NCBI GenBank assembly: GCA_030390025.1
Contig: JASTWF010000324.1
Span: 1-64,000, forward strand
Direction: 5' to 3'
DNA length: 64,000 nucleotides
Origin: Squalus acanthias
Lineage: Eukaryota
A model generated the notes under the pieces. The model saw only the letters and a program-made list of their open reading frames with translations, was not told the origin of the DNA and made no database searches. A program made the translations under genes and the position numbers. This document shows, in pieces, positions 1 to 57,599 of this stretch (its first letter is position 1; each line of letters starts with the position of its first letter).

Positions 1-177
1 ACCACTTTTCAGCTTCCTGTATGACATCACTTCCTGTAATCAGTCCAGGATAAATACTGGACTGATCAGTTAGCTCTGGAAGAGGCATAGGGTAAGACCT
101 CTTTTGTATGCAGCACCGTTTTAAGTTGATTAAAGCTTACATTAAGTTTACCACGCGTAAGGCTCATTCTTACGACA
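1..177 (+). repeat. 5' LTR of copy 1 (partial)
   Basis: Matches 4238-4414 except at position 2 (C vs A); ends ...TTACGACA. Confidence 0.95.
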
Positions 178-256
178 ATTTAATCAACTTTGAAAAAACT
201 TCGCACTCAAACTTTTTGGACGAACTCGGAGCTAAGGATCCAGGGAATCACCCATC

Positions 257-3200
257 ATGGAAAACATCCTTAAACCATCGCGTCTTGACTTGGACCCAAA
301 CACCCCAGCAGCCGGTAAGGTGTGGAAACACTGGTATCGCACGTTTGAGAATTTTCTTGAGTATTGCAAAGCTGATGATAACTCAAAGTTGCGGATACTC
401 ATCAACTGTGTCACCCCGAATGTATTTCAGTATGTGGAAGACTGGGACAGTTATGAGGAGGCAATTCAGACGCTTAAGAGACTATATACTAAGACACCGA
501 ATGAGGTCTATGCTAGACATCTACTAGCTACAGCCCAACAAGGGCCGGAGGAATCCATTGATAAATTCCTCCAAGAGCTTCGCAGACTTAGTATGGACTG
601 TAACTTTCGGGCAGCCTCAGCTGAGCTATACCGCGAAGAAATGATCCGTGATGCGTTCATCTGCGGGCTTGCCTCCCCATTTATACGCCAGCGTCTACTG
701 GAAAGTAAGACACTTGAGCTGCAGAGAGCTTATGACCTGGCTTGCTCTCTAGATCTGGCAAAAAGAAATGCAGACCTTTTTACAGTGCCCAGACCTCGGT
801 CTGCTGCCTTAACTACAGTCAGGCAATTTAAGAGGCCACAGGTGAACTCTATTAGGGAGGACTTTATCCCTGACGATCGATCTGATGACTTCACTGATGA
901 AGAGGATGATGACCCCACTGTGGCAGCCTCTTGGCAATCTAAGAAATGCTTTTTTTGTGGTGATGAGTTTCACCCTCGGAGATTCTGCCCTGCTCGCAAT
1001 GCGTTTTGCAGTCATTGCAACAAAAAGGGTCATTTTGTAAAGGTTTGCCTATCAAGAGCCTCTACGAGGGCTTATCAAGCTAAGTCCTACCGAACTGCCC
1101 CAGTAAGGGCCTATCAGGATGTTCCAACTAAAAACTATCGTGCTTCCTCTCGGGTTTTTTCTCGAAGAAACACACCTAGAATTTCAGCCACTCTTTGTGC
1201 AACGACACCAATTACAGCTGCTTGTCCTCAGAATCTATTCCATGCAGCTACAAAAGCATCAATTAATGGACATACTTTAGATGCCTTAATTGACTCAGGT
1301 AGCACTGATAGTTTCATTAGGGAACAGACTGTTGCACAGTTAAAGCTACATGTTTTTCCATCGGACCAGGCAGTTGCGATGGCTCAGTCATCACTTAATA
1401 CCAGAATTTCTGGCTTCTGTGTAGTTGAAATAATGCTTAAAGGTCACAGGTATCCCTCCACCCGGCTTTCGGTGCTCAAGGACTTATGTAGTGATCTTAT
1501 CTTAGGGCTGGATTTTCAAAAGCAGCATAAGAAGCTTACCATTGAGTTCGGCGGATCCAAACCTGAACTCACTATTTCTAATATACGACCTCGATTACCG
1601 TTCTGTGCCTTGTCAGCAGCTTCACTGGATGAACCCTCACTGTTTGCCAGTATCCCTCCTCGATGCAAACCGATTATAACAAAGTCACGCCGTTTCAGTC
1701 AGGAAGACCAGTCTTTTATTGCGGCTGAGATTTCTCGGCTTTTAGCAGAGGATATCATCGAGCCTTGTTCGTCGCCATGGCGCGCCCAGGTCGTTATTGT
1801 TAAGAACCCTCTACAACCTCACAAGAAACGGCTGTGCATTGACTATTCACAGACCATCAATCAGTATACGGACTTGGACGCATACCCATTGCCGCGCATC
1901 GATGATATGGTTAATAAATTGGCTGAGTACACGGTGTTCTCGACTTATGATCTGAAAAGCGCCTATCATCAGGTACCCTTGAAGGTCTCAGACAAGCAGT
2001 ATACAGCCTTTGAAGCCAATGGGCGGCTGTATCAATTTCGTCGCCTCCCCTTTGGGGTCACTAATGGAGTGGCTGTCTTCCAGCGAGCAATGGATGACCT
2101 GGTCAAACAGGAAGACTTGAAGGATACGTTTCCTTATCTGGACAATATTACTGTCGCAGGTCGCAATCAGCAGGAACATGACGCCAATCTCCAACGATTT
2201 TGGGATGCACTCCAGCACCGTAATTTGACATTGAATGCGGCTAAATCCATTGAGTCACAACCAACTATCAACATCCTTGGCTATTGTGTGGGCAATGGCA
2301 TCATTAAACCTGACCCTGAAAGGCTTCGCCCACTCCAAGAACTCCCGCCACCTAAGAATCCGGCCTCCTTGCGCCGGGCCCTCGGCCTGTTTGCATACTA
2401 TGCGAAATGGATTCCTAACTTCTCGGACCGAATCCAACCTCTACTGAAGGCCAGCATATTCCCACTAGACACAACGGCTGTTGCAGCCTTTAACCTCCTG
2501 AAAAAGCAGTTGGAGAAAGCGGCTCTTCACTCCATCGATGAGAGTCTTCCTTTCGTGGTTGAGTGTGATGCCTCGGAGGTGGCAATCTCAGCCACTCTGA
2601 ATCAGGAAGGTCGTCCGGTGGCATTTTTGTCCAGGACTTTTCAAGGGGCTGAGCTACATTATCCTCCAGTCGAGAAAGAAGCTACAGCCATCATAGAGGC
2701 AGTACGGAAGTGGAGTCATCTCCTGGCTCGCCAGCACTTTACCTTAATCACGGACCAGCGATCGGTCGCCTTCATGCTCGATAATCGAAAACGGACCAAA
2801 ATTAAAAATAATAAAATCCAGCTTTGGCGGCTGGAATTGGCCTCTTTTGGTTACACCATCCACTATCGACCTGGCAAGGAGAATGTGGCTCCGGATACCC
2901 TCACACGAGCATTCTGCTCCGCCATGGCACCCTCTACGCTCGTAGACATCCATGATGGGTTGTGTCATCCAGGCGTTACTCGCATGCTGCACTTCGTGCG
3001 GTCCCGAAATCTCCCATTCTCTACCGGGGATGTAAAGAAGATGTGCTCGGACTGCAGAGTCTGTGCGGAATTGAAACCTCGGTTTTTCCGCCCCTCGGGT
3101 GGTATACTCATACATGCGACCCAGCCAATGCAAAGGCTTAGCATCGATTTTAAGGGGCCGTTGCCCTCTTCGACTCGCAACACTTATCTATTAACAATGG

Positions 3201-4213
3201 TTGATGAGTATTCTCGTTTTCCGTTTGCCTTTCCCTGCCCCAATATGCTGACAACCACGGTTATCAGCTGCCTTGAACAGGTATTTGCTTTCTGTGGCAT
3301 GGCATCCTATGTTCATTCAGATCGGGGCCCTTCTTTTATGTCGGGAGAACTCAAGGCCTATCTCTCGGAACGGGGTATTGCTGCCAGCAAAACGACGCCT
3401 TATCATCCGGTTGGGAATGGGCAAGTCGAGCGTTTTAACGCTATCATCTGGAATGCGGTACGTCTGGCTTTGAGATCTCGGGGCCTACCCAACCAGCATT
3501 GGGAAGCAGTACTTCCAGACGCATTACACTCCACACGGTCCCTCCTTTCGACCGCCACAAATACGACGCCTCATGAACGGTTCTTCCGATTTCAGCGTCG
3601 CTCATCCTATGGGACATCTCTCCCGTCGTGGCTGACTGCACCGGGACCAGTGCTACTCCGAAGATATGTCCGGGCGTCTAAGAATGACCCCCTGGTAGAT
3701 GAGGTTGAGCTCACTGACGTCAACCCTACCTACGCCTATATTCGGTATCCTGACGGTCGGGAATCTACCGTGTCATTGCGGGATCTGGCTCCCTGCCCGC
3801 CGAAACATAGAGGGACACCAGGGGATGATATTGTACCAAGCACATCTCTGGGCTTGCCAGGTGCCTCTCATCATGATCGGGATCTGACGCCGGCTGGTAC
3901 CTCACTCCAGCGTGCCGACCTGGGGCAGACTGACTATGAGCCCGTTGGGGCTCGCACGCGCAGCCACGATCAACCCTGTACCGTACGCTCAGAAACGGAT
4001 CTGCCACAGCCCTGCCTGACACCCATTCGGGTACCAGTACACAGTCAGGATCGTTCTGACCCCTCACAGAGCGGGCTGGAGCACTCGGACTCTGGTCCAT
4101 GGCCCGCAGCGGGTAAACGGGCTAGGGGCCCTCTACCGCTACGAGAACCCAAACGGGTGCGGCTCTCCCTCATCCAACGGCTACGAAATGGAGGGAGCAT
4201 CCCGGCCTCCTAA
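257..4213 (+). CDS. Gag-Pol polyprotein, 1318 aa (gag with two Zn knuckles, aspartic protease, RT, RNase H, integrase)
   Basis: CFFCGDEFHPRRFC and CSHCNKKGHFVKVC knuckles; protease LIDSGS; RT motifs LCIDY, YDLKSAYHQ, LPFGV, YLDN; RNase H ECDAS, EKEA, TDQ; integrase H-H-C-C (IHDGLCH...CSDCRVC) and D,D35E (SIDF, HSDRG, GQVER). No stop or frameshift. Confidence 0.96.
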   Translation: MENILKPSRLDLDPNTPAAGKVWKHWYRTFENFLEYCKADDNSKLRILINCVTPNVFQYVEDWDSYEEAIQTLKRLYTKTPNEVYARHLLATAQQGPEESIDKFLQELRRLSMDCNFRAASAELYREEMIRDAFICGLASPFIRQRLLESKTLELQRAYDLACSLDLAKRNADLFTVPRPRSAALTTVRQFKRPQVNSIREDFIPDDRSDDFTDEEDDDPTVAASWQSKKCFFCGDEFHPRRFCPARNAFCSHCNKKGHFVKVCLSRASTRAYQAKSYRTAPVRAYQDVPTKNYRASSRVFSRRNTPRISATLCATTPITAACPQNLFHAATKASINGHTLDALIDSGSTDSFIREQTVAQLKLHVFPSDQAVAMAQSSLNTRISGFCVVEIMLKGHRYPSTRLSVLKDLCSDLILGLDFQKQHKKLTIEFGGSKPELTISNIRPRLPFCALSAASLDEPSLFASIPPRCKPIITKSRRFSQEDQSFIAAEISRLLAEDIIEPCSSPWRAQVVIVKNPLQPHKKRLCIDYSQTINQYTDLDAYPLPRIDDMVNKLAEYTVFSTYDLKSAYHQVPLKVSDKQYTAFEANGRLYQFRRLPFGVTNGVAVFQRAMDDLVKQEDLKDTFPYLDNITVAGRNQQEHDANLQRFWDALQHRNLTLNAAKSIESQPTINILGYCVGNGIIKPDPERLRPLQELPPPKNPASLRRALGLFAYYAKWIPNFSDRIQPLLKASIFPLDTTAVAAFNLLKKQLEKAALHSIDESLPFVVECDASEVAISATLNQEGRPVAFLSRTFQGAELHYPPVEKEATAIIEAVRKWSHLLARQHFTLITDQRSVAFMLDNRKRTKIKNNKIQLWRLELASFGYTIHYRPGKENVAPDTLTRAFCSAMAPSTLVDIHDGLCHPGVTRMLHFVRSRNLPFSTGDVKKMCSDCRVCAELKPRFFRPSGGILIHATQPMQRLSIDFKGPLPSSTRNTYLLTMVDEYSRFPFAFPCPNMLTTTVISCLEQVFAFCGMASYVHSDRGPSFMSGELKAYLSERGIAASKTTPYHPVGNGQVERFNAIIWNAVRLALRSRGLPNQHWEAVLPDALHSTRSLLSTATNTTPHERFFRFQRRSSYGTSLPSWLTAPGPVLLRRYVRASKNDPLVDEVELTDVNPTYAYIRYPDGRESTVSLRDLAPCPPKHRGTPGDDIVPSTSLGLPGASHHDRDLTPAGTSLQRADLGQTDYEPVGARTRSHDQPCTVRSETDLPQPCLTPIRVPVHSQDRSDPSQSGLEHSDSGPWPAAGKRARGPLPLREPKRVRLSLIQRLRNGGSIPAS

Positions 4214-4219
4214 TCTTTT

Positions 4220-4231
4220 GGGGGGGGAGAA
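4220..4231 (+). other. Polypurine tract of copy 1
   Basis: GGGGGGGGAGAA immediately upstream of the 3' LTR TG. Confidence 0.9.
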
Positions 4232-4414
4232 TGTGGTAACACTTTTCAGCTTCCTGTATGACATCACTTCCTGTAATCAGTCCAGGATAAATACTGGACT
4301 GATCAGTTAGCTCTGGAAGAGGCATAGGGTAAGACCTCTTTTGTATGCAGCACCGTTTTAAGTTGATTAAAGCTTACATTAAGTTTACCACGCGTAAGGC
4401 TCATTCTTACGACA
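4232..4414 (+). repeat. 3' LTR of copy 1 (183 bp)
   Basis: TGTGGTAA...TTACGACA, with TG..CA termini and an imperfect 8-bp terminal inverted repeat. Confidence 0.96.
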
Positions 4415-7400
4415 CTCAGTACTGTTATACACACACAGTCAGTGCTTGGACACTCAGTCCTGTTATACACACACAGTCAGTGCTGGGACACTCAGTCCTG
4501 TTACACACACAGTCAGTGCTGGGACTCTCAGTCCTGTTACACACACAGTCAGTGCTGGGACTCTCAGTCCTGTTACACACACAGTCAGTGCTGAGACACT
4601 CAGTCCTGTTACACACACAGTCAGTGCTGGGACACTCAGTCCTGTTATACACACAGTCAGTGCTGGGACACTCAGTCCTGTTACACACACAGTCAGTGCT
4701 GGGACACTCAGTCCTGTTACACACACACAGTCAGTGCTGGGACACTCAGTCCTGTTACACATACAGTCAGTGCTGGGACACTCAGTCCTGTTATACACAC
4801 AGTCAGTGCTGGGACACTCAGTCCTGTTATACACACAGTCAGTGCTGGGACACTCAGTCCTGTTACACACACAGTCAGTGCTGGGACACTCAGTCCTGAT
4901 ACGCTCACACAGTCAGTGCTGGGACACTCAGTCCTGTTACACATACAGTCAGTGCTGGGACACACAGTCCGGTTATACACACAGTCAGTGCTGGGACACT
5001 CAGTCCTGTTATACACACACAGTCAGTGCTTGGACACTCATTCCTGTTATACACACACAGTCAGTGCTGGGACACTCAGTCCTGTTACACACACAGTCAG
5101 TGCTGGGACTCTCAGTCCTGTTACACACACAGTCAGTGCTGAGACACTCAGTCCTGTTACACACACAGTCAGTGCTGGGATACTCAGTCCTGTTATACAC
5201 ACAGTCAGTGCTGGGACACTCAGTCCTGTTACACAAACAGTCAGTGCTGGGACACTCAGTCCTGTTACACACACAGTCAGTGCTGGGACACTCAGTCCTG
5301 TTATACACACATGTCAGTGCTGGGACACTCAGTCCTGTTGCACACACAGTGAGTGCTGGGACACTCAGTCCTGTTACACACACAGTCAGTGCTGGGACTC
5401 TCAGTCCTGTTATACACACACAGTCAGTGCTGGGACACTCAGTCCTGTTACACACAGAGTCATTGCTGGGACACTCAGTCCTGTTACACACACAGTCAGT
5501 GCTGGGACTCTCAGTCCTGTTACACACACAGTCAGTGCTGGGACACTCAGTCCTGTTACACACAGTCAGTGCTGGGACACTCAGTCCTGTTGCACACAGT
5601 CAGTGCTGGGACACTCAGTCCTGTTGCACACACAGGCAGTGCTGGGACACTCAGTCCTGTTACACACAGTCAGTGCTGGCACAATTAGTCCTTTTACACA
5701 CACAGTCAGTGCCTGGACACTCAGTCTTGTTACACACACAGTCAGTGCTGGGACACTCAGTCCTGTTGCACACACAGGCAGTGCCTGGACACTCAGTCCT
5801 GTTACACACACAGTCAGTGCCTGGACACTCAGTCCTGTTACACACACACAGTCAGTGCTGGGACACGCAGTCCTGATACACACAGTCAGTGCTGGGACAC
5901 TCAGTCCTGTTATACACACAGTCAGTGCTGGGACACTCAGTCCTGTTACACACACAGTCAGTGCTGGGACACTCAGTCCTGTTACACTCACACAGTCAGT
6001 GCTGGGACACTCAGTCCTGTTACACACACACAGTCAGTGCTGAGACACTCAGTCCTGTTACGCTCACACAGTCAGTGCTGGGACACTCAGTCCTGTTACA
6101 CATACAGTCAGTGCTGGGACACACAGTCCTGTTATACACACAGTCAGTGCTGGGACACTCAGTACTGTTATACACACACAGTCAGTGCTTGGACACTCAG
6201 TGCTGTTATACACACAGTCAGTGCTGGGACTCTCAGTCCTGTTACACACACAGTCAGTGCTGAGACACTCAGTCCTGTTACACACACAGTCAGTGCTGGG
6301 ACACTCAGTCCTGTTATACACACAGTCAGTGCTGGGACACTCAGTACTGTTATACACACACAGTCAGTGCTGGGACACTCAGTCCTGTTACACACACAGT
6401 CAGTGCTGGGACTCTCAGTCCTGTTACACACACAGTCAGTGCTGAGACACTCAGTCCTGTTACACACACAGTCAGTGCTGGGACACTCAGTCCTGTTATA
6501 CACACAGTCAGTGCTGGGACACTCAGTCCTGTTACACACACAGTCAGTGCTGGGACTCTCAGTCCTGTTACACACACAGTCAGTGCTGGGACACTCAGTC
6601 CTGTTACACACACAGTCAGTGCTGGGACACTCAGTCCTGTTACACACACACAGTCAGTGCTGGGACACTCAGTCCTGTTACACATACAGTCAGTGCTGGG
6701 ACACACTGTCCTGTTATACACACAGTCAGTGCTGGGACACTCAGTCCTGTTATACACACACAGTCAGTGCTTGGACACTCAGTGCTGCAATACACACACA
6801 GTCAGTGCTGGGACACTCAGTCCTGTTACACACACAGTCAGTGCTGGGACTCTCAGTCCTGTTACACACACAGTCAGTGCTGAGACACTCAGTCCTGTTA
6901 CACACACAGTCAGTGCTGGGACACTCAGTCCTGTTATACACACAGTCAGTGCTGGGACACTCAGTCCTGTTACACATACAGTCAGTGCTGGGACACTCAG
7001 TCCTGTTGCACTCACACAGTCAGTGCTGGGACACTCAGTCCTGTTACACACACACAGTCAGTGCTGGGACACTCAGTCCTGTTGCACACACAGTCAGTGC
7101 TGGGACACTCAGTCCTGTTATACACACACAGTCAGTGCTGGGACACTCAGTCCTGTTACGCTCACACAGTCAGTGCTGGGACACTCAGTCCTGTTACACA
7201 CACAGTCAGTGCTGGGACTCTCAGTCCTGTTACACACACAGTCAGTGCTGAGACACTCAGTCCTGTTACACACACAGTCAGTGCTGGGACACTCAGTCCT
7301 GTTACACACACACAGTCAGTGTTGGGACACTCAGTCCTGTTACACACACAATCAGTGCTGGGACACTCAGTCCTGTTACACACAGGCAGTGCTGGGACAC

Positions 7401-10303
7401 TCAGTCCTGTTACATACACACAGTCAGTGCTGGGACACTCAGTCCTGTTACACACACAGTCAGTGCTGGGACACTCAGTCCTGTTACACACACAGTCAGT
7501 GCTGGGACACTCAGTCCTGTTACACACACACAGTCAGTGCTGGGACACTCAATCCTGTTACACACACAGTCAGTGCTGGGACACTCAGTCCTGTTACACA
7601 CACACAGTCAGTGCTGGGACACTCAGTCCTGTTACACATACAGTCAGTGCTGGGACACTCAGTCCTGTTATACACACACAGTCAGTGCTTGGACACTCAG
7701 TGCTGCAATACACACACAGTCAGTGCTGGGACACTCAGTCCTGTTACACACACAGTCAGTGCTGGGACTCTCAGTCCTGTTACACACACAGTCAGTGCTG
7801 AGACACTCAGTCCTGTTACACACACAGTCAGTGCTGGGACACTCAGTCCTGTTATACACACAGTCAGTGCTGGGACACTCAGTCCTGTTACACATACAGT
7901 CAGTGCTGGGACACTCAGTCCTGTTGCACTCACACAGTCAGTGCTGGGACACTCAGTCCTGTTACACACACACAGTCAGTGCTGGGACACTCAGTCCTGT
8001 TACACACACAGTCAGTGCTGGGACACTCAGTCCTGTTATACACACACAGTCAGTGCTGGGACACTCAGTCCTGTTACGCTCACACAGTCAGTGCTGGGAC
8101 ACTCAGTCCTGTTACACACACAGTCATGCTGGGACTCTCAGTCCTGTTACACACACAGTCAGTGCTGAGACACTCAGTCCTGTTACACACACAGTCAGTG
8201 CTGGGACACTCAGTCCTGTTATACACACAGTCAGTGCTGGGACACTCAGTCCTGTTACACACACAGTCAGTGCTGGGACTCTCAGTCCTGTTACAGACAC
8301 AGTCAGTGCTGGGACACTCAGTCCTGTTACACACACAGTCAGTGCTGGGACACTCAGTCCTGTTACACACACACAGTCAGTGCTGGGACACTCAGTCCTG
8401 TTACACATACAGTCAGTGCTGGGACACACTGTCCTGTTATACACACAGTCAGTGCTGGGACACTCAGTCCTGTTATACACACACAGTCAGTGCTTGGACA
8501 CTCAGTGCTGTTATACACACACAGTCAGTGCTGGGACACTCAGTCCTGTTACACACACAGTCGGTGCTGGGACTCTCAGTCCTGTTACACACACAGTCAG
8601 TGCTGAGACACTCAGTCCTGTTACACACACAGTCAGTGCTGGGACACTCAGTCCTGTTATACACACAGTCAGTGCTGGGACACTCAGTCCTGTTACACAC
8701 ACAGTCAGTGCTGGGACTCTCAGTCCTGTTACACACACAGTCAGTGCTGGGACACTCAGTCCTGTTACACACACAGTCAGTGCTGGGACACTCAGTCCTG
8801 TTGCACACACACAGTCAGTGCTGGGACACTCAGTCCTGTTATACACACAGTCAGTGCTGGGACACTCAGTCCTGTTATACACACAGTCAGTGCTGGGACA
8901 CTCAGTCCTGTTACACACACAGTCAGTGCTGGGACACTCAGTCCTGTTACACTCACACAGTCAGTGCTGGGACACTCAGTCCTGTTACACATGCAGTCAG
9001 TGCTGGGACACACTGTCCTGTTATACACACAGTCAGTGCTGGGACACTCAGTCCTGTTATACACACAGTCAGTGCTGGGACACTCAGTCCTGTTACACAC
9101 ACAGTCAGTGCTGGGACTCTCAGTCCTGTTACACAAACAGTCAGTGCTGGGACACACTGTCCTGTTATACACACAGTGAGTGCTGGGACACTCAGTCCTG
9201 TTACACACAGTCAGTGCTGGGACACTCAGTCCTGTTACACACACAGTCAGTGCTGGGACTCTCAGTCCTGTTACACACACAGTCAGTGCTGGGACACTCA
9301 GTCCTGTTACACACAGTCAGTGCTGGGACACTCAGTCCTGTTACACACACAGTCAGTGCTGGGACTCTCAGTCCTGTTACACACACAGTCAGTGCTGGGA
9401 CACTCAGTCCTGTTATACACACAGTCAGTGCTGGGACACTCAGTCCTGTTACACACAGAGTCATTGCTGGGACACTCAGTCCTGTTATACACACAGTCAG
9501 TGCTGGGACACTCAGTCCTGTTACACACAAAGTCAGTGCTGGGACTCTCAGTCCTGTTACACACACAGTCAGTGCTGGGACACTCAGTCCTGTTACACAC
9601 AGAGTCATTGCTGGGACACTCAGTCCTGTTACACACACAGTCAGTGCTGGGACACTCAGTCCTGTTACACACAGTCAGTGCTGGGACACTCAGTCCTGTT
9701 ACACACACAGTCAGTGCTGGGACACTCAGTCCTGTTACACACAGTCAGTGCTGGGACACTCAGTCCTGTTACACACACAGTCAGTGCTGGGACACTCAGT
9801 CCTGTTACACACAGTCAGTGCTGGGACACTCAGTCCTGTTACACACACAGTCAGTGCTGGGACACTCAGTCCTGTTACACACACAGTCAGTGCTGGGACA
9901 CTCAGTCCTGTTACACACACATTTAGTGCTGGGACACTCAGTCCTGTTACACACAGTCAGTGCTGGGACACTCAGTCCTGTTACACACACACAGTCAGTG
10001 CTGGGACACTCAGTCCTGTTACACACACAGTCAGTGCTGGGACACTCAGTCCTGTTACACACACAGTCAGTGCTGGGACACTCAGTCCTGTTACACACAC
10101 ATTTAGTGCTGGGACACTCAGTCCTGTTACACACAGTCAGTGCTGGGACACTCAGTCCTGTTACACACACACAGTCAGTGCTGGGACGCTCAGTCTTGTT
10201 ACGCTCACACAGTCAGTGCTGGGACACTCAGTCCTGTTACATATACAGTCAGTGCTGGGACACACAGTCCTGTTATACACACAGTCAGTGCTGGGACACT
10301 CAG
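4415..10303. repeat. ~36-bp (34-38) minisatellite GTCAGTGCTGGGACACTCAGTCCTGTT(AC)nA, segment between the two LTR elements
   Basis: Directly visible tandem repeat; length varies in the CA tract. Confidence 0.98.
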
Positions 10304-13300
10304 TGTGGTAACACTTTTCAGCTTCCTGTATGACATCACTTCCTGTAATCAGTCCAGGATAAATACTGGACTGATCAGTTAGCTCTGGAAGAGGCATAGG
10401 GTAAGACCTCTTTTGTATGCAGCACCGTTTTAAGTTGATTAAAGCTTACATTAAGTTTACCACGCGTAAGGCTCATTCTTACGACAATTTAATCAACTTT
10501 GAAAAAACTTCGCACTCAAACTTTTTGGACGAACTCGGAGCTAAGGATCCAGGGAATCACCCATCATGGAAAACATCCTTAAACCATCGCGTCTTGACTT
10601 GGACCCAAACACCCCAGCAGCCGGTAAGGTGTGGAAACACTGGTATCGCACGTTTGAGAATTTTCTTGAGTATTGCAAAGCTGATGATAACTCAAAGTTG
10701 CGGATACTCATCAACTGTGTCACCCCGAATGTATTTCAGTATGTGGAAGACTGGGACAGTTATGAGGAGGCAATTCAGACGCTTAAGAGACTATATACTA
10801 AGACACCGAATGAGGTCTATGCTAGACATCTACTAGCTACAGCCCAACAAGGGCCGGAGGAATCCATTGATAAATTCCTCCAAGAGCTTCGCAGACTTAG
10901 TATGGACTGTAACTTTCGGGCAGCCTCAGCTGAGCTATACCGCGAAGAAATGATCCGTGATGCGTTCATCTGCGGGCTTGCCTCCCCATTTATACGCCAG
11001 CGTCTACTGGAAAGTAAGACACTTGAGCTGCAGAGAGCTTATGACCTGGCTTGCTCTCTAGATCTGGCAAAAAGAAATGCAGACCTTTTTACAGTGCCCA
11101 GACCTCGGTCTGCTGCCTTAACTACAGTCAGGCAATTTAAGAGGCCACAGGTGAACTCTATTAGGGAGGACTTTATCCCTGACGATCGATCTGATGACTT
11201 CACTGATGAAGAGGATGATGACCCCACTGTGGCAGCCTCTTGGCAATCTAAGAAATGCTTTTTTTGTGGTGATGAGTTTCACCCTCGGAGATTCTGCCCT
11301 GCTCGCAATGCGTTTTGCAGTCATTGCAACAAAAAGGGTCATTTTGTAAAGGTTTGCCTATCAAGAGCCTCTACGAGGGCTTATCAAGCTAAGTCCTACC
11401 GAACTGCCCCAGTAAGGGCCTATCAGGATGTTCCAACTAAAAACTATCGTGCTTCCTCTCGGGTTTTTTCTCGAAGAAACACACCTAGAATTTCAGCCAC
11501 TCTTTGTGCAACGACACCAATTACAGCTGCTTGTCCTCAGAATCTATTCCATGCAGCTACAAAAGCATCAATTAATGGACATACTTTAGATGCCTTAATT
11601 GACTCAGGTAGCACTGATAGTTTCATTAGGGAACAGACTGTTGCACAGTTAAAGCTACATGTTTTTCCATCGGACCAGGCAGTTGCGATGGCTCAGTCAT
11701 CACTTAATACCAGAATTTCTGGCTTCTGTGTAGTTGAAATAATGCTTAAAGGTCACAGGTATCCCTCCACCCGGCTTTCGGTGCTCAAGGACTTATGTAG
11801 TGATCTTATCTTAGGGCTGGATTTTCAAAAGCAGCATAAGAAGCTTACCATTGAGTTCGGCGGATCCAAACCTGAACTCACTATTTCTAATATACGACCT
11901 CGATTACCGTTCTGTGCCTTGTCAGCAGCTTCACTGGATGAACCCTCACTGTTTGCCAGTATCCCTCCTCGATGCAAACCGATTATAACAAAGTCACGCC
12001 GTTTCAGTCAGGAAGACCAGTCTTTTATTGCGGCTGAGATTTCTCGGCTTTTAGCAGAGGATATCATCGAGCCTTGTTCGTCGCCATGGCGCGCCCAGGT
12101 CGTTATTGTTAAGAACCCTCTACAACCTCACAAGAAACGGCTGTGCATTGACTATTCACAGACCATCAATCAGTATACGGACTTGGACGCATACCCATTG
12201 CCGCGCATCGATGATATGGTTAATAAATTGGCTGAGTACACGGTGTTCTCGACTTATGATCTGAAAAGCGCCTATCATCAGGTACCCTTGAAGGTCTCAG
12301 ACAAGCAGTATACAGCCTTTGAAGCCAATGGGCGGCTGTATCAATTTCGTCGCCTCCCCTTTGGGGTCACTAATGGAGTGGCTGTCTTCCAGCGAGCAAT
12401 GGATGACCTGGTCAAACAGGAAGACTTGAAGGATACGTTTCCTTATCTGGACAATATTACTGTCGCAGGTCGCAATCAGCAGGAACATGACGCCAATCTC
12501 CAACGATTTTGGGATGCACTCCAGCACCGTAATTTGACATTGAATGCGGCTAAATCCATTGAGTCACAACCAACTATCAACATCCTTGGCTATTGTGTGG
12601 GCAATGGCATCATTAAACCTGACCCTGAAAGGCTTCGCCCACTCCAAGAACTCCCGCCACCTAAGAATCCGGCCTCCTTGCGCCGGGCCCTCGGCCTGTT
12701 TGCATACTATGCGAAATGGATTCCTAACTTCTCGGACCGAATCCAACCTCTACTGAAGGCCAGCATATTCCCACTAGACACAACGGCTGTTGCAGCCTTT
12801 AACCTCCTGAAAAAGCAGTTGGAGAAAGCGGCTCTTCACTCCATCGATGAGAGTCTTCCTTTCGTGGTTGAGTGTGATGCCTCGGAGGTGGCAATCTCAG
12901 CCACTCTGAATCAGGAAGGTCGTCCGGTGGCATTTTTGTCCAGGACTTTTCAAGGGGCTGAGCTACATTATCCTCCAGTCGAGAAAGAAGCTACAGCCAT
13001 CATAGAGGCAGTACGGAAGTGGAGTCATCTCCTGGCTCGCCAGCACTTTACCTTAATCACGGACCAGCGATCGGTCGCCTTCATGCTCGATAATCGAAAA
13101 CGGACCAAAATTAAAAATAATAAAATCCAGCTTTGGCGGCTGGAATTGGCCTCTTTTGGTTACACCATCCACTATCGACCTGGCAAGGAGAATGTGGCTC
13201 CGGATACCCTCACACGAGCATTCTGCTCCGCCATGGCACCCTCTACGCTCGTAGACATCCATGATGGGTTGTGTCATCCAGGCGTTACTCGCATGCTGCA

Positions 13301-14723
13301 CTTCGTGCGGTCCCGAAATCTCCCATTCTCTACCGGGGATGTAAAGAAGATGTGCTCGGACTGCAGAGTCTGTGCGGAATTGAAACCTCGGTTTTTCCGC
13401 CCCTCGGGTGGTATACTCATACATGCGACCCAGCCAATGCAAAGGCTTAGCATCGATTTTAAGGGGCCGTTGCCCTCTTCGACTCGCAACACTTATCTAT
13501 TAACAATGGTTGATGAGTATTCTCGTTTTCCGTTTGCCTTTCCCTGCCCCAATATGCTGACAACCACGGTTATCAGCTGCCTTGAACAGGTATTTGCTTT
13601 CTGTGGCATGGCATCCTATGTTCATTCAGATCGGGGCCCTTCTTTTATGTCGGGAGAACTCAAGGCCTATCTCTCGGAACGGGGTATTGCTGCCAGCAAA
13701 ACGACGCCTTATCATCCGGTTGGGAATGGGCAAGTCGAGCGTTTTAACGCTATCATCTGGAATGCGGTACGTCTGGCTTTGAGATCTCGGGGCCTACCCA
13801 ACCAGCATTGGGAAGCAGTACTTCCAGACGCATTACACTCCACACGGTCCCTCCTTTCGACCGCCACAAATACGACGCCTCATGAACGGTTCTTCCGATT
13901 TCAGCGTCGCTCATCCTATGGGACATCTCTCCCGTCGTGGCTGACTGCACCGGGACCAGTGCTACTCCGAAGATATGTCCGGGCGTCTAAGAATGACCCC
14001 CTGGTAGATGAGGTTGAGCTCACTGACGTCAACCCTACCTACGCCTATATTCGGTATCCTGACGGTCGGGAATCTACCGTGTCATTGCGGGATCTGGCTC
14101 CCTGCCCGCCGAAACATAGAGGGACACCAGGGGATGATATTGTACCAAGCACATCTCTGGGCTTGCCAGGTGCCTCTCATCATGATCGGGATCTGACGCC
14201 GGCTGGTACCTCACTCCAGCGTGCCGACCTGGGGCAGACTGACTATGAGCCCGTCGGGGCTCGCACGCGCAGCCACGATCAACCCTGTACCGTACGCTCA
14301 GAAACGGATCTGCCACAGCCCTGCCTGACACCCATTCGGGTACCAGTACACAGTCAGGATCGTTCTGACCCCTCACAGAGCGGGCTGGAGCACTCGGACT
14401 CTGGTCCATGGCCCGCAGCGGGTAAACGGGCTAGGGGCCCTCTACCGCTACGAGAACCCAAACGGGTGCGGCTCTCCCTCATCCAACGGCTACGAAATGG
14501 AGGGAGCATCCCGGCCTCCTAATCTTTTGGGGGGGGAGAATGTGGTAACACTTTTCAGCTTCCTGTATGACATCACTTCCTGTAATCAGTCCAGGATAAA
14601 TACTGGACTGATCAGTTAGCTCTGGAAGAGGCATAGGGTAAGACCTCTTTTGTATGCAGCACCGTTTTAAGTTGATTAAAGCTTACATTAAGTTTACCAC
14701 GCGTAAGGCTCATTCTTACGACA
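10304..14723 (+). mobile_element. Ty3/Gypsy LTR retrotransposon, copy 2, full length 4420 bp, 5-bp TSD CTCAG
   Basis: LTRs 10304-10486 and 14541-14723 look identical; CTCAG at 10299-10303 and 14724-14728; PPT at 14529-14540. Confidence 0.98.
10566..14522 (+). CDS. Gag-Pol polyprotein, 1318 aa, same protein as copy 1
   Basis: Same translation in the ORF track; one synonymous difference seen (T3946 vs C14255). Confidence 0.96.
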   Translation: MENILKPSRLDLDPNTPAAGKVWKHWYRTFENFLEYCKADDNSKLRILINCVTPNVFQYVEDWDSYEEAIQTLKRLYTKTPNEVYARHLLATAQQGPEESIDKFLQELRRLSMDCNFRAASAELYREEMIRDAFICGLASPFIRQRLLESKTLELQRAYDLACSLDLAKRNADLFTVPRPRSAALTTVRQFKRPQVNSIREDFIPDDRSDDFTDEEDDDPTVAASWQSKKCFFCGDEFHPRRFCPARNAFCSHCNKKGHFVKVCLSRASTRAYQAKSYRTAPVRAYQDVPTKNYRASSRVFSRRNTPRISATLCATTPITAACPQNLFHAATKASINGHTLDALIDSGSTDSFIREQTVAQLKLHVFPSDQAVAMAQSSLNTRISGFCVVEIMLKGHRYPSTRLSVLKDLCSDLILGLDFQKQHKKLTIEFGGSKPELTISNIRPRLPFCALSAASLDEPSLFASIPPRCKPIITKSRRFSQEDQSFIAAEISRLLAEDIIEPCSSPWRAQVVIVKNPLQPHKKRLCIDYSQTINQYTDLDAYPLPRIDDMVNKLAEYTVFSTYDLKSAYHQVPLKVSDKQYTAFEANGRLYQFRRLPFGVTNGVAVFQRAMDDLVKQEDLKDTFPYLDNITVAGRNQQEHDANLQRFWDALQHRNLTLNAAKSIESQPTINILGYCVGNGIIKPDPERLRPLQELPPPKNPASLRRALGLFAYYAKWIPNFSDRIQPLLKASIFPLDTTAVAAFNLLKKQLEKAALHSIDESLPFVVECDASEVAISATLNQEGRPVAFLSRTFQGAELHYPPVEKEATAIIEAVRKWSHLLARQHFTLITDQRSVAFMLDNRKRTKIKNNKIQLWRLELASFGYTIHYRPGKENVAPDTLTRAFCSAMAPSTLVDIHDGLCHPGVTRMLHFVRSRNLPFSTGDVKKMCSDCRVCAELKPRFFRPSGGILIHATQPMQRLSIDFKGPLPSSTRNTYLLTMVDEYSRFPFAFPCPNMLTTTVISCLEQVFAFCGMASYVHSDRGPSFMSGELKAYLSERGIAASKTTPYHPVGNGQVERFNAIIWNAVRLALRSRGLPNQHWEAVLPDALHSTRSLLSTATNTTPHERFFRFQRRSSYGTSLPSWLTAPGPVLLRRYVRASKNDPLVDEVELTDVNPTYAYIRYPDGRESTVSLRDLAPCPPKHRGTPGDDIVPSTSLGLPGASHHDRDLTPAGTSLQRADLGQTDYEPVGARTRSHDQPCTVRSETDLPQPCLTPIRVPVHSQDRSDPSQSGLEHSDSGPWPAAGKRARGPLPLREPKRVRLSLIQRLRNGGSIPAS

Positions 14724-17700
14724 CTCAGTACTGTTATACACACACAGTCAGTGCTTGGACACTCAGTCCTGTTATACACACACAGTCAGTGCTGGGACAC
14801 TCAGTCCTGTTACACACACAGTCAGTGCTGGGACTCTCAGTCCTGTTACACACACAGTCAGTGCTGAGACACTCAGTCCTGTTACACACACAGTCAATGC
14901 TGGGACACTCAGTCCTGTTACACACACAGTCAGTGCTGGGACACTCAGTCCTGTTATACACACAGTCAGTGCTGGGACACTCAGTCCTGTTACACACACA
15001 GTCAGTGCTGGGACTCTCAGTCCTGTTACACACACAGTCAGTGCTGAGACACTCAGTCCTGTTACACACACAGTCAGTGCTGGGACACTCAGTCCTGTTA
15101 TACACACAGTCAGTGCTGGGACACTCAGTCCTGTTACACACACAGTCAGTGCTGGGACACTCAGTCCTGTTACACACACACAGTCAGTGCTGGGACACTC
15201 AGTCCTGTTACACATACAGTCAGTGCTGGGACACTCAGTCCTGTTATACACACAGTCAGTGCTGGGACACTCAGTCCTGTTATACACACAGTCAGTGCTG
15301 GGACACTCAGTCCTGTTACACACACAGTCAGTGCTGGGACACTCAGTCCTGATACGCTCACACAGTCAGTGCTGGGACACTCAGTCCTGTTACACATACA
15401 GTCAGTGCTGGGACACACAGTCCGGTTATACACACAGTCAGTGCTGGGACACTCAGTCCTGTTATACACACACAGTCAGTGCTTGGACACTCATTCCTGT
15501 TATACACACACAGTCAGTGCTGGGACACTCAGTCCTGTTACACACACAGTCAGTGCTGGGACTCTCAGTCCTGTTACACACACAGTCAGTGCTGAGACAC
15601 TCAGTCCTGTTACACACACAGTCAGTGCTGGGATACTCAGTCCTGTTATACACACAGTCAGTGCTGGGACACTCAGTCCTGTTACACAAACAGTCAGTGC
15701 TGGGACACTCAGTCCTGTTACACACACAGTCAGTGCTGGGACACTCAGTCCTGTTATACACACATGTCAGTGCTGGGACACTCAGTCCTGTTGCACACAC
15801 AGTGAGTGCTGGGACACTCAGTCCTGTTACACACACAGTCAGTGCTGGGACTCTCAGTCCTGTTATACACACACAGTCAGTGCTGGGACACTCAGTCCTG
15901 TTACACACAGAGTCATTGCTGGGACACTCAGTCCTGTTACACACACAGTCAGTGCTGGGACTCTCAGTCCTGTTACACACACAGTCAGTGCTGGGACACT
16001 CAGTCCTGTTACACACAGTCAGTGCTGGGACACTCAGTCCTGTTGCACACAGTCAGTGCTGGGACACTCAGTCCTGTTGCACACACAGGCAGTGCTGGGA
16101 CACTCAGTCCTGTTACACACAGTCAGTGCTGGCACAATTAGTCCTTTTACACACACAGTCAGTGCCTGGACACTCAGTCTTGTTACACACACAGTCAGTG
16201 CTGGGACACTCAGTCCTGTTGCACACACAGGCAGTGCCTGGACACTCAGTCCTGTTACACACACAGTCAGTGCCTGGACACTCAGTCCTGTTACACACAC
16301 ACAGTCAGTGCTGGGACACGCAGTCCTGATACACACAGTCAGTGCTGGGACACTCAGTCCTGTTATACACACAGTCAGTGCTGGGACACTCAGTCCTGTT
16401 ACACACACAGTCAGTGCTGGGACACTCAGTCCTGTTACACTCACACAGTCAGTGCTGGGACACTCAGTCCTGTTACACACACACAGTCAGTGCTGAGACA
16501 CTCAGTCCTGTTACGCTCACACAGTCAGTGCTGGGACACTCAGTCCTGTTACACATACAGTCAGTGCTGGGACACACAGTCCTGTTATACACACAGTCAG
16601 TGCTGGGACACTCAGTACTGTTATACACACACAGTCAGTGCTTGGACACTCAGTGCTGTTATACACACAGTCAGTGCTGGGACTCTCAGTCCTGTTACAC
16701 ACACAGTCAGTGCTGAGACACTCAGTCCTGTTACACACACAGTCAGTGCTGGGACACTCAGTCCTGTTATACACACAGTCAGTGCTGGGACACTCAGTAC
16801 TGTTATACACACACAGTCAGTGCTGGGACACTCAGTCCTGTTACACACACAGTCAGTGCTGGGACTCTCAGTCCTGTTACACACACAGTCAGTGCTGAGA
16901 CACTCAGTCCTGTTACACACACAGTCAGTGCTGGGACACTCAGTCCTGTTATACACACAGTCAGTGCTGGGACACTCAGTCCTGTTACACACACAGTCAG
17001 TGCTGGGACTCTCAGTCCTGTTACACACACAGTCAGTGCTGGGACACTCAGTCCTGTTACACACACAGTCAGTGCTGGGACACTCAGTCCTGTTACACAC
17101 ACACAGTCAGTGCTGGGACACTCAGTCCTGTTACACATACAGTCAGTGCTGGGACACACTGTCCTGTTATACACACAGTCAGTGCTGGGACACTCAGTCC
17201 TGTTATACACACACAGTCAGTGCTTGGACACTCAGTGCTGCAATACACACACAGTCAGTGCTGGGACACTCAGTCCTGTTACACACACAGTCAGTGCTGG
17301 GACTCTCAGTCCTGTTACACACACAGTCAGTGCTGAGACACTCAGTCCTGTTACACACACAGTCAGTGCTGGGACACTCAGTCCTGTTATACACACAGTC
17401 AGTGCTGGGACACTCAGTCCTGTTACACATACAGTCAGTGCTGGGACACTCAGTCCTGTTGCACTCACACAGTCAGTGCTGGGACACTCAGTCCTGTTAC
17501 ACACACACAGTCAGTGCTGGGACACTCAGTCCTGTTGCACACACAGTCAGTGCTGGGACACTCAGTCCTGTTATACACACACAGTCAGTGCTGGGACACT
17601 CAGTCCTGTTACGCTCACACAGTCAGTGCTGGGACACTCAGTCCTGTTACACACACAGTCAGTGCTGGGACTCTCAGTCCTGTTACACACACAGTCAGTG

Positions 17701-20700
17701 CTGAGACACTCAGTCCTGTTACACACACAGTCAGTGCTGGGACACTCAGTCCTGTTACACACACACAGTCAGTGTTGGGACACTCAGTCCTGTTACACAC
17801 ACAATCAGTGCTGGGACACTCAGTCCTGTTACACACAGGCAGTGCTGGGACACTCAGTCCTGTTACATACACACAGTCAGTGCTGGGACACTCAGTCCTG
17901 TTACACACACAGTCAGTGCTGGGACACTCAGTCCTGTTACACACACAGTCAGTGCTGGGACACTCAGTCCTGTTACACACACACAGTCAGTGCTGGGACA
18001 CTCAATCCTGTTACACACACAGTCAGTGCTGGGACACTCAGTCCTGTTACACACACACAGTCAGTGCTGGGACACTCAGTCCTGTTACACATACAGTCAG
18101 TGCTGGGACACTCAGTCCTGTTATACACACACAGTCAGTGCTTGGACACTCAGTGCTGCAATACACATACAGTCAGTGCTGGGACACTCAGTCCTGTTGC
18201 ACTCACACAGTCAGTGCTGGGACACTCAGTCCTGTTACACACACACAGTCAGTGCTGGGACACTCAGTCCTGTTGCACACACAGTCAGTGCTGGGACACT
18301 CAGTCCTGTTATACACACACAGTCAGTGCTGGGACACTCAGTCCTGTTACGCTCACACAGTCAGTGCTGGGACACTCAGTCCTGTTACACACACAGTCAG
18401 TGCTGGGACTCTCAGTCCTGTTACACACACAGTCAGTGCTGAGACACTCAGTCCTGTTACACACACAGTCAGTGCTGGGACACTCAGTCCTGTTACACAC
18501 ACACAGTCAGTGTTGGGACACTCAGTCCTGTTACACACACAATCAGTGCTGGGACACTCAGTCCTGTTACACACAGGCAGTGCTGGGACACTCAGTCCTG
18601 TTACATACACACAGTCAGTGCTGGGACACTCAGTCCTGTTACACACACAGTCAGTGCTGGGACACTCAGTCCTGTTACACACACAGTCAGTGCTGGGACA
18701 CTCAGTCCTGTTACACACACACAGTCAGTGCTGGGACACTCAATCCTGTTACACACACAGTCAGTGCTGGGACACTCAGTCCTGTTACACACACAGTCAG
18801 TGCTGGGACACTCAGTCCTGTTACACATACAGTCAGTGCTGGGACACTCAGTCCTGTTATACACACACAGTCAGTGCTTGGACACTCAGTGCTGCAATAC
18901 ACACACAGTCAGTGCTGGGACACTCAGTCCTGTTACACACACAGTCAGTGCTGGGACTCTCAGTCCTGTTACACACACAGTCAGTGCTGAGACACTCAGT
19001 CCTGTTACACACACAGTCAGTGCTGGGACACTCAGTCCTGTTATACACACAGTCAGTGCTGGGACACTCAGTCCTGTTACACATACAGTCACTGCTGGGA
19101 CACTCAGTCCTGTTGCACTCACACAGTCAGTGCTGGGACACTCAGTCCTGTTACACACACACAGTCAGTGCTGGGACACTCAGTCCTGTTACACACACAG
19201 TCAGTGCTGGGACACTCAGTCCTGTTATACACACACAGTCAGTGCTGGGACACTCAGTCCTGTTACGCTCACACAGTCAGTGCTGGGACACTCAGTCCTG
19301 TTACACACACAGTCATGCTGGGACTCTCAGTCCTGTTACACACACAGTCAGTGCTGAGACACTCAGTCCTGTTACACACACAGTCAGTGCTGGGACACTC
19401 AGTCCTGTTACACACACACACAGTCAGTGTTGGGACACTCAGTCCTGTTACACACAGGCAGTGCTGGGACACTCAGTCCTGTTACATACACACAGTCAGT
19501 GCTGGGACACTCAGTCCTGTTACACACACAGTCAGTGCTGGGACACTCAGTCCTGTTACACACACAGTCAGTGCTGGGACACTCAGTCCTGTTACACACA
19601 GTCAGTGCTGGGACACTCAGTCCTGTTACACACACAGTCAGTGCTGGGACACTCAGTCCTGTTATACACACATGTCAGTGCTGGGACACTCAGTCCTGTT
19701 ACACACACAGTGAGTGCTGGGACACTCAGTCCTGTTACACACACAGTCAGTGCTGGGACTCTCAGTCCTGTTATACACACACAGTCAGTGCTGGGACACT
19801 CAGTCCTGTTACACACAGAGTCATTGCTGGGACACTCAGTCCTGTTATACACACACAGGCAGTGCTGGGACACTCAGTCCTGTTACACACAGTCAGTGCT
19901 GGGACACTCAGTCCTGTTACACACACAGTCAGTGCTGGGACACTCAGTCCTGTTATACACACATGTCAGTGCTGGGACACTCAGTCCTGTTACACACACA
20001 GTGAGTGCTGGGACACTCAGTCCTGTTACACACACAGTCAGTGCTGGGACTCTCAGTCCTGTTATACACACACAGTCAGTGCTGGGACACTCAGTCCTGT
20101 TACACACAGAGTCATTGCTGGGACACTCAGTCCTGTTATACACACAGTCAGTGCTGGGACACTCAGTCCTGTTACACACAAAGTCAGTGCTGGGACTCTC
20201 AGTCCTGTTACACACACAGTCAGTGCTGGGACACTCAGTCCTGTTACACACAGTCAGTGCTGGGACACTCAGTCCTGTTACACACACAGTCAGTGCTGGG
20301 ACACTCAGTCCTGTTACACACAGTCAGTGCTGGGACACTCAGTCCTGTTACACACACAGTCAGTGCTGGGACACTCAGTCCTGTTACACACAGTCAGTGC
20401 TGGGACACTCAGTCCTGTTACACACACAGTCAGTCCTGTTACACACAGTCAGTGCTGGGACACTCAGTCCTGTTACACACACAGTCAGTGCTGGGACACT
20501 CAGTCCTGTTACACACACAGTCAGTGCTGGGACACTCAGTCCTGTTACACACACAGTCAGTGCTGGGACACTCAGTCCTGTTACACACACATTTAGTGCT
20601 GGGACACTCAGTCCTGTTACACACAGTCAGTGCTGGGACACTCAGTCCTGTTACACACACACAGTCAGTGCTGGGACACTCAGTCCTGTTACACACACAC

Positions 20701-47040: not shown

Positions 47041-47430
47041 TTCTGATATCATGTGGCTGAACATCAAAATTGCATCAACCATTATTGGGTGCTGCATGAA
47101 TGCTGTCAGCTCCTGTGGTCGGAGAAATGGACTGACTAACATCGCATGTGGGTTTGGTGCACTTGATAACCAACGTGCAGCATATATACAGGGCAGGACA
47201 GCTTTCAACATTGCTTGAATGCCACTAGTCAGCTGTAAGAGCAACGGGCGGGGGCGACTGCCAAAGTTCCCAACACAATGTTGTTCTCAGGGACTATATT
47301 GTTTGGTGATTCAGAAGCCGTGCAAGCCTAGTTGTAGCACTGAGATGAAGCTAGCCCGCACTGGTTTTCACCCTGAGCTGTGTTGGGAACCCTTCAAATA
47401 TTGACACACTGTGAGGAGGCCCTGCAATTA

Positions 47431-47760
47431 ATCATAGAATCATGGAATACAGCACAGGAGGAGGCCATTCGGCCCATCGTGCCTGTGCCGGCTCTTTGAA
47501 AGAGCTCTCCAATTAGTCCCACTCCCCCCTGCTCTTTCCTCATAGCCCTGCAAATTTTTCCTTTTCAAGTATTTGTCCAATTCCCGATTGAAAGTTATTA
47601 TTGAATCTGCTTCCAACGTCCTTTCAGACAGAGCATTCCAGATCATGACAAAAAAATTCTCATCTTCTCCCCTCGGGTTCTTTTGCTGATCATCTTCAAT
47701 CTGTGCCCTCCTGCCAGTGGAAATGGTTTCTCCCGATCTACTCCATTAAAACCCCTCAGA
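47431..47760 (-). mobile_element. CR1 LINE 3' end fragment
   Basis: Reverse complement of the CR1 3' UTR (ggccattcggcccatc, atcatagaatc tail); the minus-strand translation IWNALSERTLEADSIITFNRELDKYL resembles a CR1 ORF2 C-terminus. Confidence 0.8.
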
Positions 47761-47789
47761 ATGGTTCACACCCTCAAATATTCACATCA

Positions 47790-49061
<1,272 letters not shown>

Positions 49062-49754: not shown

Positions 49755-50098
49755 TCCCCATCCTCACTGACCTACACTGTCCCCCATCCTCACTGACCTA
49801 CACTGTCCCCCATCCTCACTGACCTACACTGTCCCCATCCTCACTGACCTACACTGTCCCCATCCTCATTGACCTACACTGTCCCCCATCCTCACTGACC
49901 TACACTGTCCCCCATCCTCACTGACCTACACTGTCCCCCATCCTCACTGACCTACACTGTCCCCCATCCTCACTGACCTACACTGTCCTCCATCCTCACT
50001 GACCTACACTGTCCCCCATCCTCACTGACCTACACTGTCCCCCATCCTCACTGACCTACACTGTCCCCCATCCTCACTGACCTACACTGTCCCCCATC
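49755..50098. repeat. 26-bp minisatellite CCCCCATCCTCACTGACCTACACTGT (~13 copies)
   Basis: Visible tandem units. Confidence 0.95.
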
Positions 50099-53134: not shown

Positions 53135-53406
53135 AGAGTAAAGCTCCCTCTACACTGTCCCATCAAACACTCCCAGGGCAGGTACAGCACGGGTTAGATA
53201 CAGAGTAAAGCTCCCTCTACACTGTCCCATCAAACACTCCCAGGGGAGGTACAGCACGGGTTAGATACAGAGTAAAGCTCCCTCTACACTGTCCCATCAA
53301 ACACTCCCAGGGCAGGTACAGCACAGGTTAGATACAGAGTAAAGCTCCCTCTACACTGTCCCATCAAACACTCCCAGGGCAGGTACAGCACGGGTTAGAT
53401 ACAGAG
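53135..53406 (-). repeat. 67-bp satellite, reverse orientation, left of the LTR insertion
   Basis: Reverse complement of the 67-bp unit. Confidence 0.95.
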
Positions 53407-55099: not shown

Positions 55100-55250
55100 C
55101 AGAGTAAAGCTCCCTCTACACTGTCCCATCAAACACTCCCAGGGCAGGTACAGCACGGGTTAGATACAGAGTAAAGCTCCCTCTACACTGTCCCATCAAA
55201 CACGCCCAGGGCAGGTACAGCACGGGTTAGATACAGAGTAAAGCGCCCTC
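55100..55250 (-). repeat. 67-bp satellite, reverse orientation, right of the LTR insertion
   Basis: Resumes in register after the TSD. Confidence 0.95.
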
Positions 55251-55251
55251 T

Positions 55252-57286: not shown

Positions 57287-57305
57287 ATCTATTCTTTTAC
57301 TTAAC

Positions 57306-57575: not shown

Positions 57576-57599
57576 ACCAATTCTGGAGCTATACATTAG

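Follow-up and report, generated by a model that had tools for sequence, protein, structure and literature searches.

Two members of a Ty3/gypsy family were inserted into tandem arrays within the 64,000 nucleotides of Squalus acanthias contig JASTWF010000324.1 analysed here (the window), and both placements are probably explained by a weak, symmetric preference of the integrase, of an ordinary sort, in DNA that is rich in repeats. Weak preferences are typical of this kind of element. The one described here, for T-R before and Y-A after the target site duplication (TSD), modestly extends a known rule: palindromic motifs reaching past the TSD are described as general for LTR families in the available part of PMC3276498.

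Two independent insertions in unrelated arrays

Element A lies in a 36-bp minisatellite, and element B, which belongs to a sister subfamily, interrupts a short 67-bp minisatellite. The features are as follows.

10299..10303, + strand, 5' TSD copy of element A, CTCAG (5 bp), inside the 36-bp minisatellite
10304..10486, + strand, 5' LTR of element A, 183 bp with TG...CA ends
10566..14522, + strand, single gag-pol ORF of element A, 1318 aa, with the protease-RT-RNase H-integrase order of Ty3/gypsy
14541..14723, + strand, 3' LTR of element A, with a polypurine tract directly before it
14724..14730, + strand, 3' TSD copy CTCAG of element A and flanking TA (TSD itself 14724-14728)
1..4414, + strand, second copy of element A, made by a 10,309-bp tandem duplication that included the array, and sharing the 3' flank
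53400..53406, + strand, flanking TA and 5' TSD copy CAGAG of element B (TSD itself 53402-53406)
53407..55099, + strand, element B, with identical LTRs at 53407-53600 and 54906-55099
55100..55106, + strand, 3' TSD copy CAGAG of element B and flanking TA (TSD itself 55100-55104)
4415..10303, no strand, 36-bp minisatellite array separating both copies of element A
14724..26590, no strand, 36-bp minisatellite array 3' of element A, with empty target alleles at 20827 and 22452
53135..55251, no strand, short 67-bp minisatellite array of about 4 + 2 units, interrupted by element B

The two LTRs of element A are identical. Direct LTRs with TG...CA ends next to a short TSD, together with Pfam matches in pol ordered protease-RT-RNase H-integrase, place the element in Ty3/gypsy. 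It has one ORF only, the Pfam search returned no env match, and the last 268 aa of the ORF matched neither a chromodomain nor any other Pfam family up to E=5. Element B resembles A with 85% identity in the LTR and 94% in the shared internal part; its ORF stops after 278 codons and most of pol is deleted.

The copy at 1-4414 was considered as a third insertion event and rejected, since it is a tandem duplicate with the same 3' flank. Two independent insertions with 5-bp TSDs therefore remain, as the preliminary description of this DNA had proposed, and the targets reconstructed from them, gacA[CTCAG]TActg and gatA[CAGAG]TAaag, are those it gave. A TSD longer than 5 bp was also rejected: the 4 letters preceding each 3' TSD copy are also found where the 5' LTR gives way to the internal region, and site B has different letters there. 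The 67-bp satellite had been called unrelated to the 36-bp array, and indeed no kinship of the two units was detectable, with 437 of 1,000 shuffles reaching their alignment score; a common origin of the two repeats was rejected on this ground.

Element A occupies a rare unit variant. The sequence CTCAGTAC occurs 10 times among the 459 CTCAG of the two 36-bp array stretches, and two of these occurrences are the TSD copies behind LTRs. The uninterrupted CTCAG-TA units thus number 8 of 457, which confirms an earlier count of about eight among several hundred. The eight arose as higher-order-repeat copies of one another and not by independent mutation. Two empty alleles, at 20827 and 22452, match the reconstructed site A at all but 1 of 125 positions. 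Because such near-identical empty alleles exist, the simplest view is that the TA variant was present before element A inserted.

Target letters in relatives from other hosts

The preliminary description had ascribed a sequence preference to the integrase. Examining 22 insertions of relatives in other hosts (31 junctions; integrase 37-68% identical where measurable), we found that this claim was supported for the two letters outside the TSD and that the relatives do not share the CWSAG core. TA, the only pattern derived from the earlier motif, lay just outside the 5-bp TSD at 9 of 31 junctions compared with 2.6 expected (p=0.0008), in a sample from few and distant hosts. Of the 31 junctions, 15 were unmatched or known from one end only, so that homology set their ends, and the paired half-sites of an insertion do not count as independent. 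TA or CA was present at 16 of 31 junctions (4.8 expected) and a YR step at 18 of 31 (7.5 expected, p=0.0001), YA and YR having been picked after the data were seen. When counted by offset, TA peaked with 9 at offset 5, against 1, 2, 2 and 4 at offsets 3, 4, 6 and 7. The enrichment was retained after removal of the closest family (6/27, p=0.018) and in TSD-backed junctions alone (4/16, p=0.03), and T at +1 by itself was not enriched among relatives (12/31, p=0.22). The four half-sites in the window carry TA in three cases and YR in all four.

With the half-sites of relatives pooled, symmetric letters thus extend beyond the TSD and form a weak palindrome at the level of the lineage. A high-information core within the TSD and common to the clade, as in errantiviruses, was not found: CWSAG or its reverse complement was present at 0 of 31 relative junctions, a clade-wide CWSAG core was rejected, and this core is drawn from the two window sites alone. 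An AC-NNN-GT motif was likewise rejected, as neither C at the first TSD position (8/31, p=0.21) nor A at -1 (12/31) was significant in relatives. An inner C...G is backed by both sites in the window and, in the closest relative family, by 2 of 4 junctions.

Chance combined with selective noticing could also have produced the likeness of sites A and B, in a family without meaningful sequence preference. There are only two sites, many windows were screened, and the five relative insertions with exact TSDs, taken alone, show TA at a non-significant 2 of 10 junctions (p=0.19). Compared directly, sites A and B share 6/8 and 9/14 letters, with p ~0.005-0.04 depending on null, width and orientation, and p ~0.01-0.04 when either orientation is allowed. 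However, the TA flank first noted in the window recurs in separate data at the right offset, and element A was placed in a rare unit, so we consider this explanation improbable.

We favour a weak two-fold symmetric target preference of the integrase of this lineage. The enzyme cuts the two strands 5 bp apart, as the TSDs show, and the statistics of the relatives show that it favours a pyrimidine-purine step, mostly TA or CA, directly outside the TSD on both sides (approximately T-R-[N5]-Y-A). In the element A/B family the inner C...G may add to this preference. Judged from established knowledge, the symmetry most likely arises because the integrase works as a multimer on target DNA that can bend. 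Within an array, such a preference would pick the position, as with the rare TA unit; that arrays are hit at all would follow from their share of the region, two thirds, and insertions there are probably tolerated.

A possible strong palindrome and possible steering into repeats

Sites A and B resemble each other more than a weak motif would usually yield, and each empty site is one mismatch from the palindrome TA[CTNAG]TA. It is conceivable, though unlikely, that the A/B family sharpened the lineage preference into this strong palindrome, with about one mismatch tolerated. Treated as four half-sites of one palindrome, the two sites depart from it at 2 of 16 letters (p 1e-4 to 9e-4 after correction for width), for a motif fitted to these two sites and a statistic picked after they were seen. 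The closest relative family has G|TA at 2 of 3 3' junctions, whereas the core is missing from all relative junctions. With elements and duplicates removed, the window has 75 near-perfect sites; 66 lie within arrays, including 42 in a single 3.9-kb array of the 67-bp unit. Since nearly every 67-bp unit carries a TA[CTNAG]TA-like site, this minisatellite would be a passive hot spot. In contrast, near-perfect sites are no denser in the 36-bp array (8 in 11.9 kb) than outside arrays (9 in 11.5 kb), and the two large 67-bp arrays with 52 such sites carry no element copy. Less likely still is the wider proposition of a young vertebrate Gypsy family, not of the errantivirus group, that reads the 9-bp palindrome TA[CTNAG]TA so closely that a widespread 67-bp minisatellite, with the site in almost all of its units, takes up a large part of the family's insertions; satellites would then be targeted by DNA sequence and not by chromatin.

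The suggestion that the family is steered into satellites as safe havens gained no support. Tandem repeats make up 64-68% of the element-free window, so two insertions in repeats are not beyond chance (probability ~0.4 for 2/2 at this repeat content), and 3 of 22 relatives lie inside arrays (4/22 counting a short TA microsatellite) against a background of 24%. If a tether of chromatin or protein truly steered the family to satellites or heterochromatin, this would be in line with both events lying in arrays, with the position of B in a small array within a stretch (47051-64000) of only 22% tandem repeat, and with the co-amplification of element A and its array. Two unrelated repeat types were hit, however. 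Some satellite- or centromere-targeting LTR elements carry a chromodomain or another known targeting domain downstream of the integrase core; Pfam found none here, although targeting can reside outside known domains. Such targeting does exist in plants, where the centrophilic Tal1 and ATHILA elements of Arabidopsis lie, like the elements here, within tandem repeats; Tal1 is targeted via CENH3 chromatin, as proven by de novo insertions in the part of PMC11735389 available, whereas no repeat enrichment is shown here. We therefore regard tethered steering as very improbable.

Known target motifs and the lineage

Part of the element is contained in 20 of 24 public sequencing runs listed. Reads of four public runs over 10280-10640 gave 8, 664, 2 and 2 records; none of the best 13 of 49 loose-end read groups from these runs held clean host flank at either LTR end, and the loose ends at 10304 in these 13 matched either the array or the purine tract of the element itself. 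Viral contigs searched with protein, alignment and LTR-end pattern yielded nothing, and 400 additional genomes of the same class as one genome examined gave 0 matches.

Cigr-1 clade elements prime independently of tRNA. The element here has an LTR-complementary primer site, and an ascidian homolog at 61% was among the hits. The Cigr-1 clade of Ciona intestinalis (named in PMC6238403), an animal Gypsy clade, is a possible home for the element.

Palindromic target motifs are known from Drosophila LTR families (412, gypsy and Idefix clades; Pao; Linheiro and Bergman 2012, PMC3276498, available part). As in those families, the symmetric motif described here extends past the TSD and is common within a clade, and the low-information T 5' and A 3' of the TSD in the 412 clade resemble the elements here. 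Drosophila Gypsy families in that source mostly have 4-bp TSDs with AT-rich cores, whereas here the TSD is 5 bp, conserved letters occupy -2/-1 and +1/+2, and relatives have no core in common. Elements of the errantivirus group (gypsy, ZAM and Idefix, with targets TATA, CGCG and ATAT) likewise combine a Ty3/gypsy integrase with a palindromic target, but their specificity is strong and inside the TSD, while the preference proven here is weak and in the flank; the part of this review available calls specificity of that kind exclusive to errantiviruses and their two-ORF derivatives (PMC5408687). Unlike the errantivirus type with two or three ORFs, element A has one ORF and no env. A parallel is found in plant LTR elements with 5-bp TSDs, including rice Tos17 (target ANGTT-TSD-AACNT), which show a weak palindromic flank and outer TSD letters biased to C/G; Tos17 is a Ty1/copia element, however, with flank letters other than T-R...Y-A (available part of PMC6911290 and work cited there).

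A literature search, conducted mostly outside subscription journals and with the clade not named, returned no description of the targets of this lineage. The favoured reading gives a Gypsy lineage that is widespread in animals a target motif, a 5-bp TSD between T-R and Y-A. If the strong motif were true genome-wide, the integrase would be sequence-selective although not of the errantivirus group, and a route into minisatellites would be encoded in the DNA itself, which would be of interest for transposon ecology.

The two insertions and their target sites

The repeat-rich animal DNA of the window carries two Ty3/gypsy insertions, element A in a 36-bp minisatellite array and its sister element B in a 67-bp array:

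1-4414, forward-strand numbering: second, near-identical copy of element A, product of a 10,309-bp tandem duplication, with the same 3' flank
10304-14723: element A, Ty3/gypsy, with identical 183-bp LTRs
53407-55099: element B, whose 194-bp LTRs are identical to each other and 85% like those of A; most of pol is deleted

Element A has a single ORF of 1318 aa that encodes protease, RT, RNase H and integrase, in that order. A Narcine homolog was among its matches; together with the minisatellite types, it points to a cartilaginous fish as the likely host. We take Cigr-1 to be a possible home clade. It has no tRNA primer site, and the 12 letters following the 5' LTR are complementary to an intra-LTR stretch (both within 10432-10499), a putative self-priming signature. 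Its relatives show a matching arrangement. The deletion joint of element B holds 35 bp (54841-54875) that repeat the beginning of the element's own LTR, which suggests template switching or recombination.

The window begins within an LTR of the duplicate copy. The two A copies show one internal difference, and about 5.9 kb of array was duplicated along with the element (period 10,309 bp, window 1-20600), with units gained or lost since; this repeat may be a real tandem duplication or an assembly artefact. Because the copy at 1-4414 shares the 3' flank of A through the duplication, the independent insertions number two, as the preliminary description stated.

It had also proposed a common target, A-CWSAG-TA. 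The claimed 5-bp duplications, each followed by TA, were found on both sides of each element: CTCAG at 10299-10303 and 14724-14728 for A, and CAGAG at 53402-53406 and 55100-55104 for B. In the 36-bp arrays CTCAG occurs 459 times and is followed by TAC in 10 cases, two of them copies behind LTRs; uninterrupted units of this type thus number 8 of 457, matching the roughly eight noticed earlier. Empty alleles at 20827 and 22452 equal the rebuilt A site at 124 of 125 positions, so that the TA variant would most simply have existed before element A inserted. No kinship was detectable between the 36-bp and 67-bp units.

Target preference among relatives

The four sequencing runs used, out of 24 listed, yielded no usable flanks. 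Thirty-two loci of relatives came from metagenome contigs and 12 from genome contigs (animal-like contigs in bacterial bins). Three of these GTDB bins (G001, G002 and G003; 145, 51 and 145 matches) supplied additional stretches and LTR copies; their long contigs of animal type, in which Gypsy elements and minisatellites abound, are host contamination. Where it could be measured, the integrase of relatives was 37-68% identical to that of element A (no value for L079/80; that of L085 is from elsewhere on its contig).

Collapsing repeated assemblies of one locus gave 22 insertions with 31 junctions: five with exact duplications (GAGCT, ATGAT, GCTAT, TCTCT, GGTAA), three near matches (L024, at first labelled unmatched, being counted as such in the flank-dinucleotide test), one element with unmatched sides (two junctions) and 13 single ends positioned by homology to another LTR copy. 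All exclusions preceded counting: same-locus repeats (L004, L006, L014, L021, L025, L026, L031, L032, L035, L038, L051, L053 and refetched stretches); collapsed circular contigs without flanks (L001, L033, L034); unfixable LTR ends (among others L007-L011, L013, L015-L017, L019, L022, L023, L028, L029, L039, L042, L043, L058, L059, L063-L067, L070, L075); and loci of ~30% identity, taken as a different lineage (L040, L041, L044).

The null for each junction was sampled from the flank of that junction. TA, the sole motif named before the relatives' data were seen, lay directly outside the duplication at 9 of 31 junctions (2.6 expected, p=0.0008), with the signal maximal at offset 5. TA or CA was present at 16 (4.8 expected; no draw out of 20,000 reached this) and YR steps at 18 (7.5 expected, p=0.0001), while position +2 was A in 19 (10.0 expected, p=0.0006). 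The TA excess persisted in duplication-backed junctions (4/16, p=0.03), after removal of the closest family (6/27, p=0.018; this family had TA at 3/3 3' junctions and 0/1 5' junction) and after removal of the closest and most divergent relatives (5/20, p=0.03). The five exact-duplication insertions alone gave 2/10 (p=0.19). Across the 31 junctions T at +1 alone showed no enrichment, the duplication began with C at 8 (p=0.21) and a CWSAG core occurred at none. The lineage therefore has a weak flank preference agreeing with the TA of the proposed motif, whereas a CWSAG-type core would at most be a putative feature of the one family.

Likeness of the two sites

Read directly, the A and B sites share 6/8 and 9/14 letters (p about 0.005-0.04, depending on which of four nulls, several widths and two orientations was used). 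From the outside inward their half-sites are CA/CT, TA/CT, TA/CA and TA/CT, and each site is one mismatch off TA[CTNAG]TA, a palindrome fitted to both. Random position pairs equalled this fit, width-corrected, at 9e-4 when drawn from the window, 1e-4 when one position came from the 36-bp and the other from the 67-bp array, 1.4e-4 in shuffled sequence and 2.3e-4 outside arrays. As the statistic was picked once the sites were known and the finding was itself selected out of many windows, a palindromic likeness beyond chance is suggestive only. The fit of both sites would suit a strong family-level palindrome preference, but with no CWSAG among the relatives' junctions we consider this unlikely, though somewhat less so than chance.

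Tandem repeats and integrase preference

The preliminary description held that the integrase steers the family into satellites as safe havens. In the element-free window, tandem repeats account for 68% of the sequence; the share falls to 64% once the duplicated block is removed, and in 47051-64000 it is 22%. Finding both insertions in arrays is unremarkable (probability about 0.4; about 0.2 for B alone). Of the 22 insertions of relatives, 3 touch an array called by TRF, and such arrays occupy 24% of the 95.5 kb of flank; one of the three arrays includes the LTR end and hence formed after insertion, and a fourth insertion adjoins a short TA/TG microsatellite. A Pfam search of the last 268 aa of the A ORF found no domain. 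Steering is thus not borne out, and true satellite targeting appears very improbable.

Of 75 sites that depart from the palindrome by at most one letter, 66 fall in arrays, chiefly the 67-bp array (42 in 3.9 kb), a density favouring a passive route; but DNA outside arrays, with 9 in 11.5 kb, is at least as rich in them as the 36-bp array (8 in 11.9 kb). The two large 67-bp arrays carry no element copy.

Several repeats were observed alongside. In L073 (7228-7540, G003:C362) a 54-bp tandem array has units that contain the last 3' LTR letters plus target DNA, a minisatellite seeded by an LTR junction. At L079/L080 (G003:C252) a distant relative lies within a 28-bp minisatellite, with TA on the 5' side. 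Window 26591-64000 is a dense mosaic of unrelated minisatellites (periods 20, 24, 26, 31, 33, 36, 37, 67, 69, 87 and 88 bp), with LINE reverse transcriptase fragments, presumably CR1/L2-type, at 55252-56010 and 59918-62500 (ORFs at 59918-62332).

We consider an ordinary weak symmetric integrase preference, acting in repeat-rich DNA, the probable explanation. Integrase multimers engage their target symmetrically, and that of this lineage makes a 5-bp staggered cut, seen in the duplications; across the lineage the letters at -2/-1 and +1/+2, directly outside them, are statistically biased. TA/CA steps may be preferred as bendable DNA; this preference would set the register and pick the rare unit inside the array, while array abundance and tolerance would account for the location.

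A search of the accessible literature found no paper on the targets of this lineage; the name Cigr-1, of the possible home clade, appears in PMC6238403. The 22 insertions of relatives showed no array enrichment that would place the lineage beside Tal1, a satellite-targeting element (PMC11735389), and it fails tests of errantivirus-type specificity (PMC5408687). It behaves like LTR elements with weak palindromic target motifs: palindromic motifs extending past the duplication are reported for all 22 Drosophila families studied (PMC3276498) and, in weak form, for plant LTR elements (PMC6911290).
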